From a virus (taxonomy: Duplodnaviria > Heunggongvirae > Uroviricota > Caudoviricetes), in the IMG/VR virus record IMGVR_UViG_2778261535_000013, positions 1 through 43,950 of that record: a stretch of DNA of 43,950 nt. One strand, written 5' to 3'. Within the stretch, counting starts at the first letter, position 1. Each line of letters starts with the position of its first letter. A program made the position numbers and the translations under genes. Under the pieces are notes generated by a model, which searched no databases, was not told where the DNA came from, and saw nothing but the letters and a program-made list of their open reading frames with translations. Below, in pieces: positions 28,408 through 29,445 of the stretch.

Positions 28408-28490
28408 TGGACCGTCACCGGGGACTCGAACCCCGCACCACAAAACAACAATACGTGTTATGCACTCTTACCCGATGAGTTAGTGACGGT
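28408..28490 (-). tRNA. tRNA-like gene with non-canonical anticodon arm (possible GUA anticodon), may be a pseudo-tRNA
   Basis: perfect acceptor stem CCGTCAC/GTGACGG, T-arm CGGGG-TTCGAGT-CCCCG and CCA end, but the anticodon arm only folds as ATAAC-ACGTATT-GTTGT with C at position 33. Confidence 0.45.
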
Positions 28491-28745
28491 TTTTTGTTCT
28501 GTGGGAATCCAGCCTGACGACAGAATTACTGGAACACCTTGCAAAAAAAGCCAGCCACCAGAGACTGGCTGGCAAATGACAGAGTTTAAATGATTCATCA
28601 TACAATCGTCGTTACAGGGGAATCCTGCGGTGCAGCAAGATACAGAAATGTAAGCAAACTAACAATAAGCAAGCACAGCATATTCGGAATTAGTTATAAT
28701 TTTAACGATGCAGTGCTTATTCAGCATGCAATTCTGCAAATTACC

Positions 28746-28771
28746 AAAAAAAAACCGCCTGCTAAGGCGGT
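28746..28771 (-). terminator. intrinsic terminator downstream of the tRNA cluster
   Basis: minus-strand stem ACCGCC/GGCGGT followed by a long T-run. Confidence 0.5.
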
Positions 28772-29135
28772 GGTCAAATCAGTAAGTGCTGAAGAGTATT
28801 ATTATAATACAAGTGAGGTGTCGGGTGCCTCCCGAAATACCTGACATTCCATCAGATACTGTAGTTTCCCGGCTAAACTACTTAAACCACCCCGCACATG
28901 GAGTTCACCTCATTTTGTGATGTTAACAACATCGGGATAGTGCATAATCAGCCCCTGCCAGGAAATATCAAAAATCCCACCAATAATGCACTATTCCGAT
29001 AGCGTCAAAAAACACAGCACCGAAATCATAACTGGTCTCCGTTATAATTCGGGAGCGCGATAAGGGATATACGAGACCTTTTCCCGCGAGAAAAAAAACG
29101 CCAGTGCTGAAAAACCTGTACCTCATTTGTTTTGC

Positions 29136-29210
29136 TGGAGCGGGCAGCGGGAATCGAACCCGCATCATCAGCTTGGAAGGCTGAAGTAATAGCCATTATA
29201 CGATGCCCGC
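29136..29210 (-). tRNA. tRNA-Gly (anticodon UCC)
   Basis: 75-nt cloverleaf GCGGGCATCGTATAATGGCTATTACTTCAGCCTTCCAAGCTGATGATGCGGGTTCGATTCCCGCTGCCCGCTCCA; closely resembles E. coli glyT as recalled. Confidence 0.9.
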
Positions 29211-29213
29211 ATA

Positions 29214-29289
29214 TGGTGCCGACTACCGGAATCGAACTGGTGACCTACTGATTACAAGTCAGTTGCTCTACCTACTGAGCTAAGTCGGC
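29214..29289 (-). tRNA. tRNA-Thr (anticodon UGU)
   Basis: 76-nt cloverleaf GCCGACTTAGCTCAGTAGGTAGAGCAACTGACTTGTAATCAGT…GGCACCA; resembles E. coli thrU as recalled. Confidence 0.9.
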
Positions 29290-29291
29290 AC

Positions 29292-29369
29292 TGGACCGCC
29301 ACCGGGGACTCGAACCTCGCACACTCAACTTAAAGGGTTGACGCTCTTTCCTGATGAGCTAGTGGCGGT
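29292..29369 (-). tRNA. tRNA-like gene, possible UUU (Lys) anticodon with C at position 33
   Basis: folds as CCGCCAC-TA-GCTC…GAGC-G-TCAAC-CCTTTAA-GTTGA-GTGTG-CGAGG-TTCGAGT-CCCCG-GTGGCGG-T-CCA with one T-stem mismatch; abuts the next tRNA with no spacer. Confidence 0.5.
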
Positions 29370-29445
29370 TGGTGGCCCTTGCTGGATTTGAACCAGCGAC
29401 CTGGCGATTATGAGTCGCTCGCTCTCACCACTGAGCTAAAGGGCC
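29370..29445 (-). tRNA. tRNA with CAU anticodon (Ile2/lysidine type or elongator Met)
   Basis: 76 nt GGCCCTTTAGCTCAGTGGTGAGAGCGAGCGACTCATAATCGC…GGGCCACCA; resembles E. coli ileX-type tRNA as recalled. Confidence 0.85.

Follow-up and report, generated by a model that had tools for sequence, protein, structure and literature searches.

Shiga toxin (Stx) phages of the 933W type carry three transfer RNA (tRNA) genes, ileZ-argN-argO, placed after the antiterminator gene Q and a terminator and before the stx or lysis genes. Separately, tRNA-cleaving defences (PARIS, P2 OLD, retron Eco7, PrrC) and the rescue tRNAs that counter them are known chiefly from work on virulent phages, T5 among them, whose tRNA-Lys(UUU) neutralises PARIS (PMC11464382; PMC12409363); phage tRNA-Lys clones also rescue the toxicity of the PARIS nuclease AriB (PMC12445682). 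Here we analyse the IMG/VR record IMGVR_UViG_2778261535_000013 (43,950 nucleotides [nt], referred to in full as the window), which is 100% identical to lambda-like prophages in porcine enterotoxigenic Escherichia coli strains and which carries five tRNA or tRNA-like genes on its minus strand (Table 1). Sequence comparison identifies this region as a lambdoid post-Q tRNA cassette, homologous to ileZ-argN-argO. Two of its members, called here gene 4 (second in the order of transcription) and gene 5 (last), appear to be remodelled tRNAs on the scaffold of argN. Gene 4 may be a nuclease-proof spare tRNA-Lys, and gene 5 a maintained tRNA-like RNA that takes no part in decoding; we regard this joint reading as about equally likely to be right or wrong.

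The cassette lies on the late-gene strand, between Q with its tR'-like terminator and the lysis genes, the place that its counterparts occupy before lysis or toxin genes, and its first two slots are ~90% identical to ileZ-argN over 219 nt. Gene 4 aligns over its full length with argN of Stx phages, sharing its acceptor type and T arm. Genes 4 and 5 and argN have in common a phage-specific scaffold with C1:G72, U73, and an encoded CCA, which occurs in 2132 of 5426 (39%) complete E. coli genomes. The locus departs from ileZ-argN-argO in three respects: argN has the loop CUUCGAA with U33 and anticodon UCG, whereas slot 2 here has UUU with C33; copies of the host genes thrU and glyT stand in place of argO; and the scaffold recurs, in a form that does not decode, 646 nt downstream of the cassette.

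A first-pass annotation, made without minus-strand assignment, gene order, or reference to ileZ-argN-argO, had already listed five tRNA genes between Q and the lysis genes, two of them non-canonical, and had suggested one ancestor for those two, naming pseudo-tRNAs, decoys against tRNA-targeting nucleases, and altered decoding as possible readings. ARAGORN indeed returns five genes and the Rfam tRNA model (RF00005) matches four, and the common argN-type phage scaffold leaves the shared ancestry of genes 4 and 5 well supported. Details of the layout required correction. The spacers between the first four genes, given as 0–3 nt, are 1, 2, and 3 nt. Gene 5, placed 645 bp away, follows the Gly gene at 646 nt and does have a terminator of its own. 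The 5' ends assigned to the two odd genes (29369 and 28490) each take in one spacer base, ARAGORN placing them at 29368 and 28489.

Covariance-model alignment folds gene 4 into a regular cloverleaf, in which an anticodon stem of 5 bp (UCAAC/GUUGA) closes a 7-nt loop, C32-C33-U34-U35-U36-A37-A38. The loop CCUUUAA had originally been read from a manual fold; because the covariance-model alignment keeps C33, this residue is real and no artefact of that fold. The gene passes the RF00005 gathering score with a full-length match (44.4 vs. 29 bits, compared with 53.2 bits for a U33 sister in strain ECOR29). Its loop departs from the canonical form by C instead of U at position 33, with the purine A37 present. 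The acceptor, D, and T arms, described earlier as normal, are so except for an A51.C63 mismatch in the T stem. Thermodynamic folding was uninformative, with z-scores of −1.4 to −1.5 for genes 4 and 5 and a minimum free energy structure for gene 4 that is not a cloverleaf.

Scanning IMG/VR for the 3' end of the scaffold recovered at least 120 copies. Among the matches listed, at least 58 are Arg(UCG) genes, at least 50 are Lys-like with C33 (10 of 50 with body defects too), at least nine are expanded and non-decoding, at least one is a Lys(UUU) gene with the normal U33 (loop CUUUUAU), and at least two are otherwise aberrant. All 50 Lys-like copies have C33, while position 32 is C, A, or U. Arg(UCU) sisters share the anticodon stem of gene 4 exactly and have the loop CUUCUAA in place of CCUUUAA; since the same stem is joined to loops differing at two sites, gene 4 lies two substitutions (U33C and C35U) from Arg(UCU), and it appears to be an anticodon-switched, Arg-to-Lys derivative of the argN scaffold. 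Slot 2 also varies between otherwise identical cassettes, which read CAU-Arg(UCU)-Thr-Gly in Shigella and E. coli (L178), CAU-expanded-Thr-Gly in L152, CAU-“tRNA-OTHER”-Arg(UCU) in L009, and CAU-Lys(UUU, U33) in ECOR29, where the U33 version follows an ileZ-type gene.

The anticodon arm of gene 4 can be compared with the published requirements of two anticodon-arm nucleases. PARIS AriB depends on U36AAU39 and U16 and cleaves at C40|A41, and T5 tRNA-Lys evades it through U39A, A41C, and C16 (PMC12409363). P2 OLD, through which P2 classically restricts lambda, removes the anticodon arm at CNG motifs that pair within the anticodon stem; thrU is cut best and tRNA-Lys is nicked once, and surplus host thrU gives no protection (PMC12445682). 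Gene 4 has the UUU anticodon of the AriB-targeted host tRNA-Lys(UUU), combined with C16, G39, U40, and U41 where the host tRNA has U16, U39, C40, and A41; the 5' strand of its anticodon stem (C28-A-A) contains no CNG, and the 3' strand contains no C at all. As judged from these positions, gene 4 lacks every published AriB and P2 OLD cleavage determinant. It resembles T5 tRNA-Lys in its anticodon and in being changed at the same determinant positions (39, 41, and 16), with position 40 in addition; it differs from the T5 tRNA in its Arg-derived scaffold, C33, and U73, in belonging to a temperate lambdoid rather than a virulent phage, and in that its resistance is only predicted. Published rescue tRNAs work by replacement, not protection. 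The absence of the determinants favours a resistant spare over a decoy, and we consider it an evenly balanced question whether gene 4 is such a remodelled, nuclease-proof tRNA-Lys. As for C33 itself, U33C has no effect on gamma-toxin, and the PrrC and gamma-toxin papers hold no evidence that C33 blocks anticodon-loop nucleases. As a separate observation, the argN-type Arg(UCG) genes (L003, 1643–1719; most copies, including L012 and L021) have the anticodon stem CCAGC/GCUGG with A37, in which a paired CAG/CUG matches the published CNG consensus of P2 OLD; the UCAAC/GUUGA versions, both Arg(UCU) and Lys-like, are without it.

Gene 5 retains an intact tRNA body, with a 7-bp acceptor stem (CCGUCAC/GUGACGG), a 4-bp D stem (ACUC…GAGU), G18G19 in the D loop, and a T arm without mismatch (CGGGG-UUCGAGU-CCCCG); U73 and the encoded CCA are also present. 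Its anticodon arm and variable loop together occupy 27 nt, as compared with 22 in tRNA, in agreement with the irregular anticodon arm noted at first pass; no Rfam tRNA match is found at E ≤ 10, the gene does not fold as a canonical elongator, and the ARAGORN call of “Val aac” is forced. With gene 4 accepted by the covariance model, C33 included, and gene 5 rejected, the manual fold of both stands. Two registers are equally possible for the expanded region: a stem AUAAC/GUUGU with loop ACGUAUU (C33, U37) and a 9-nt variable region, or, because of ACA/UGU repeats, a slipped 7-bp stem with an 8-nt loop. As the loop is aberrant in either register and the would-be wobble base varies (G or A) among close copies, decoding by gene 5 appears very unlikely. 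The acceptor and T arms had been called the same in both odd genes. The scaffold is shared, but the arms are not identical, gene 4 having C-G at 4:69 and A at T position 51 where gene 5 has U-A and G; in the D stem, 10:25 is G-C in gene 4 and A-U in gene 5.

Other identities for gene 5 were rejected. The transfer-messenger RNA model (RF00023) reaches 19.4 bits over 28418–28513 against a gathering score of 47, ARAGORN reports no such gene, and no other Rfam family fits. One site in the window matches the gene 5 loop in antisense with one mismatch, which is no better than chance. A promoter of its own was likewise ruled out, as the scan finds none and the homologous gene in relative L006 adjoins the upstream terminator. 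Given the lack of a promoter, the two upstream terminators, and the abutment in L006, gene 5 is predicted to be present only in the Q-antiterminated late transcript.

We assign gene 5 to an older branch of the scaffold that does not decode and that recurs across several genera of enterobacteria. In E. coli genomes gene 5 always lies upstream of TerB-DUF3927-holin, the four-tRNA cassette sometimes being absent. Non-decoding relatives include 81–82-nt “tRNA-OTHER” genes at the argN position between ileZ and argO (L009 type), the 82-nt copy in slot 2 of a CAU-x-Thr-Gly cassette (L152), and elements in Salmonella diarizonae, Citrobacter, Edwardsiella (beside NinG, Q, and tRNA-Gly), Kluyvera, and Kosakonia; additionally, a canonical Arg(UCG) tRNA with the acceptor and T arm of gene 5 is present in E. 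coli A30 (L010). A strict pattern for the expanded type gave no match in species-representative genomes and one in metagenomes. A 5-bp stem of the type A-Y-R-A-C/GUUGU is common to six non-decoding copies, drawn from E. coli, Salmonella, Citrobacter, and Edwardsiella, and carries loops of 6, 7, or 11 nt with unrelated sequences. When 16 distinct non-decoding sequences are compared, standard pairs fill 98.4% of the cells in the acceptor, D, and T helices, as against 30–50% in slid controls, while the loops cannot be aligned; both-sided changes occur at four pairs, 4:69, 7:66, 10:25 (G-C, G.U, or A-U), and 50:64. Non-decoding RNAs of this general kind are not without parallel: stable RNAs C and D of phage T4 (“species 1 and 2”) are tRNA-like, belong to a tRNA cluster, and do not decode. 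They resemble gene 5 in these respects and differ in that they are not built on an Arg-tRNA scaffold.

We propose that the cassette combines an ileZ-type tRNA-Ile2(CAU) in slot 1, captured thrU and glyT in slots 3 and 4, and, in slot 2, a phage-specific argN scaffold whose anticodon arm varies from phage to phage. Gene 4 would have arisen from Arg(UCU) through the C35U switch to Lys(UUU) together with U33C. It would be transcribed from the cassette promoter and released by RNase P and 3' trimming; if lysyl-tRNA synthetase (LysRS) charges it through U34-U35-U36, the product would be a spare tRNA-Lys(UUU). PARIS AriB and P2 OLD, both Toprim nucleases that attack the anticodon arm, should miss this tRNA because positions 16, 39, 40, and 41 and the CNG motifs all differ. 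Gene 5 would be made only from the Q-antiterminated late transcript during lytic growth, excised like a tRNA, and matured to a stable, tRNA-shaped, CCA-ended RNA with a role outside decoding.

A serious rival is that both odd genes are tRNA pseudogenes, argN-type duplicates that lost decoding through U33C in one case and a scrambled anticodon arm in the other, and that persist only because they are young or because they hitch-hike in a mobile module. We think this unlikely on balance. Of the observations that follow, those on t6A37, on damaged Lys-like copies, and on the rarity, missing tRNA-model match, variable loop, and flanks of gene 5 speak for it; like the others, most of these also weigh against a function of the two genes. 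U33 is almost universal in elongator tRNAs, and A73 is an identity element for LysRS, replaced in gene 4 by U73. Eukaryotic cytoplasmic initiator tRNA-Met is a natural tRNA that tolerates C33, and it enters the P site directly; gene 4, unlike it, has elongator features and a UUU anticodon. C33 weakens the U-turn, to which gene 4 adds the mismatch in its T stem, and, as reported in a review, C33 acts as an anti-determinant for formation of t6A37 in bacteria, so that this modification would be blocked (PMC9654439). Some 472 of the ~750 E. coli records with gene 4 hold variants of 95–99% identity that are mostly uncalled by the Prokaryotic Genome Annotation Pipeline (PGAP), for example the O157 PPompW prophages, in which the D stem has lost 1 nt, and strain 042, which carries U8C/C11U/C4U. 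Such damaged variants, like the unannotated Lys-like copies with extra body defects, suggest relaxed constraint, though O157 is over-sampled. Gene 5 is rare (~16 of the 5426 complete E. coli genomes), has no match in GenBank phage records or to the tRNA model, varies in its loop even between close copies, and is flanked by DNA as conserved among those copies as the gene itself. The helix sample behind the pairing figures is small, its members are related (which inflates shuffle statistics), and its 3' half is fixed by the search pattern; some relatives also carry single T-stem or acceptor mismatches (L087, L009, and L078).

The neighbouring Thr gene also weighs against our proposal. It resembles the OLD-resistant phage tRNA-Thr(UGU) variants (PMC12445682) in being a Thr(UGU) gene of a lambda-type phage, the group restricted by P2 OLD, and differs from them in matching host thrU, which is nuclease-sensitive, at every base, so that the two CNG motifs and the full 5-bp stem are retained. 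Because of this identity it is expected to be cleaved like the host tRNA and fits codon supply rather than escape; the cassette as a whole is therefore no anti-nuclease kit.

Simple decay of the gene 5 lineage fits poorly with the body helices of the 16 non-decoding members, which are maintained, apparently by compensatory change, across several genera. In the Lys-like lineage, the five acceptor-stem variants among the matches listed all replace C by U and so retain a G.U pair, with no G-to-A change, which hints at selection on the helix. Additionally, gene 4 with its C33 persists at ≥99% identity in at least 279 E. coli records, where PGAP annotates it as tRNA-Lys, and is present in inducible, viable phages.

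A different function for the conserved body would be RNA processing, with the tRNA shape kept for RNase P and 3' trimming: gene 4 would free its neighbours, gene 5 would punctuate the late transcript before the TerB-holin lysis genes, and the anticodon arm would drift. The 1- and 2-nt spacers flanking gene 4, the location of gene 5 inside a late transcript without a promoter, and the fact that CCA and the two arms forming the RNase P substrate, acceptor and T, are the best-kept parts even where the D arm is damaged are all consistent with such a role. However, a normal tRNA would do equally well, leaving the change of anticodon arm unexplained; the D stem, dispensable for RNase P, likewise stays paired, with compensatory change; and several relatives are solitary, outside operons. 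We consider this explanation improbable. A similarly low probability attaches to a bolder extension of our own proposal, in which enterobacterial prophages keep a family of CCA-ended, tRNA-shaped RNAs on one Arg-tRNA scaffold, with a deliberately non-decoding, fast-evolving anticodon arm, that, together with the C33 tRNA-Lys, would serve as uncuttable substitutes or sponges against PARIS, OLD, and their relatives, C33 being adaptive in that it keeps UUU while evading readers of the canonical loop.

Gene 5, and perhaps gene 4, could instead be a decoy or sponge that binds a tRNA-directed defence or toxin unproductively, for example an enzyme acting on the tRNA body or CCA end. Conservation of the body and CCA beside a variable anticodon arm would suit such a role, as would late-only expression, if the prediction holds, and non-productive complexes between phage tRNAs and the effector have been raised as a possibility (PMC12409363, discussion). 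The gene 5 arm, however, mimics no host tRNA and varies among relatives, making a decoy for the known anticodon-arm nucleases unlikely; rescue tRNAs, as noted above, replace rather than protect, and no candidate partner was identified. Overall we hold a decoy to be very improbable. The weakest alternative, hardly credible, is that C33 shifts the turn by one base so that gene 4 reads UUA through U35-U36-A37 as a weak ochre (UAA) suppressor in lytic growth: the one observation in its favour is the loop CCUUUAA, in which UUUAA is constant among copies while position 32 varies, but the shifted anticodon would be followed by just one base within the 7-nt loop, an arrangement for which we know of no natural tRNA, and the U33 sister loop CUUUUAU is that of an ordinary Lys tRNA.

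The placement of this cassette in the lambdoid ileZ-argN-argO family and the annotation of gene 4 as tRNA-Lys in RefSeq are already known. In the literature searched we found nothing on ileZ, argN, and argO and no description of a fixed C33, of an Arg-to-Lys switch on the argN scaffold, of the complete loss of AriB and OLD determinants, or of a maintained non-decoding scaffold branch. The analysis adds to work centred on virulent phages a tRNA slot carried by temperate lambdoid phages, in which the anticodon arm has repeatedly been rebuilt on a fixed scaffold found in more than a third of complete E. coli genomes. A common product of this slot is a UUU tRNA changed wherever AriB and OLD are known to read and breaking the U33 rule. 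Existing nuclease-rescue assays can test gene 4 directly and cheaply; if the C33 tRNA decodes, it would be a natural test case for the contribution of U33 and t6A37 to tRNA-Lys function. The non-decoding branch would represent an unannotated class of RNA gene, which standard tRNA finders miss or label “tRNA-OTHER”.

Table 1. Features of the post-Q tRNA region of the window, in the order of the minus strand.
Feature	Position	Strand	Basis
Candidate pR', resembling a late promoter (TTGCAA-17-TATATT) and overlapping the Q gene at its end	29643..29671	−	Promoter scan
GC-rich hairpin and T run between Q and cassette; lambdoid tR' position	29568..29591	−	Minus-strand reading (scan lists plus strand)
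Sigma-70 promoter-like site, TTGCAA-17-TATTAT, GC-rich discriminator, 9 nt before first tRNA; predicted	29455..29483	−	Scan and sequence
tRNA (CAU), ileZ-type tRNA-Ile2 (AUA after lysidine modification)	29370..29445	−	ARAGORN; Rfam, 72.5 bits; PGAP tRNA-Ile; ~90% identical to ileZ
Gene 4, argN-scaffold tRNA, UUU, C33, U73, encoded CCA, A51.C63 mismatch	29292..29368	−	ARAGORN; Rfam, 44.4 bits; alignment; PGAP tRNA-Lys
tRNA-Thr(UGU), exact copy of host thrU	29214..29289	−	ARAGORN; 76/76 vs. K-12 thrU; Rfam, 73.8 bits
tRNA-Gly(UCC), copy of host glyT with one change, C26U	29136..29210	−	ARAGORN; 74/75 vs. K-12 glyT; Rfam, 66.0 bits
Terminator-like hairpin and T run, first of two between cassette and gene 5	28754..28771	−	Scan
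Second terminator-like hairpin and T run, 60 nt before gene 5; adjoins the gene in relative L006	28550..28573	−	Scan; relatives
Gene 5, 82-nt tRNA-shaped, argN scaffold, expanded non-canonical anticodon region	28408..28489	−	ARAGORN; alignments; unannotated in RefSeq
Terminator-like hairpin, 26 nt past the CCA of gene 5; kept in relatives	28362..28381	−	Scan

Q itself corresponds to the open reading frame (ORF) at 29655–30350, for which the identical RefSeq record gives the product as antitermination protein Q. The order on the minus strand is Q, the tR'-like terminator, the predicted promoter of the cassette, tRNA-Ile2(CAU), Lys-like(UUU), Thr(UGU), Gly(UCC), and, later, gene 5; the assignment of the hairpin as tR' is drawn from its position. 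RefSeq gives the same succession of antiterminator Q, tRNA-Ile, tRNA-Lys, tRNA-Thr, and tRNA-Gly, followed by a TerB-family protein, DUF3927, two holins, and an endolysin, with gene 5 left without annotation. A RelE/ParD toxin-antitoxin pair lies upstream of Q in that record.

The remaining members of the cassette are canonical. Their (near-)exact identity to thrU and glyT indicates that the Thr and Gly genes are captured host genes, and a reading of these two as nuclease-resistant variants is ruled out by the same identity. In the host, tyrU lies between thrU and glyT, while the prophage copies are 3 nt apart; the arrangement looks like phage capture and rearrangement of host tRNA genes. Relative to K-12 frequencies, the codons ATA, ACA, and GGA are ~2× enriched in the ORFs of the window, so that ordinary codon supply fits the CAU, Thr, and Gly genes. 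It does not account for the Lys gene: AAA is at only 1.15× the host frequency, and AGA (~4×) and AGG (~6×) would favour the Arg(UCU) sister. Despite this enrichment the prophage is without an Arg(UCU) tRNA, which sister cassettes carry in slot 2 or the argO slot.

The post-Q region gathers tRNA genes in variable order; in E. coli A10, for example, a second, diverged tRNA-Gly(UCC) (L006, 2269–2343) follows the gene 5 homologue and precedes the holin. It also appears to be a hotspot for small RNA (sRNA) genes, as matches to the sRNA STnc100 (55–143 bits; L009, 2444–2637; L216, 3202–3378; L210, 3102–3293) and to the anti-sRNAs AgvB/AsxR cluster in the post-Q module of related loci. In the window itself a weak STnc100 match (27.6 bits; gathering score 47) covers 28742–28937 on the minus strand and ends at the terminator 28771–28754. 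The following ~170 nt (28574–28740, minus strand) are common to all gene 5 loci and end in the strong terminator 28573–28550; this stretch matches neither an Rfam family nor a convincing ORF, and may be another small RNA. Just past the Gly gene, a long imperfect inverted repeat (28920–29011, minus strand) gives a spurious 32-bit “mir-983” match.

Outside recognisable prophages, a scaffold copy with a 7-bp anticodon stem and 9-nt loop occurs in Kluyvera sp. (L210, 3326–3406), 33 nt past the STnc100 match; its neighbours resemble chromosomal tus and a two-component sensor kinase and regulator, with no obvious prophage at this locus. An unrelated set of tRNA-like elements was observed in IMG/VR metagenome contigs (L133–L138, L141, L146, L149, L156, L163, L164, L168, and L175). 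These have the form GACGCAG-UA-GCUC…GAGC with T arm CAGGG-UUCGAGU-CCCUG and no encoded CCA, and their “anticodon arm” is a short tetraloop-capped hairpin (e.g., CCCGC-GCAA-GCGGG) whose stems covary. Elsewhere in the window, full-length matches were found to the sok antitoxin RNA (110 bits; 32357–32531, minus strand) and to the sRNA DicF (76.7 bits; 38795–38846, plus strand).

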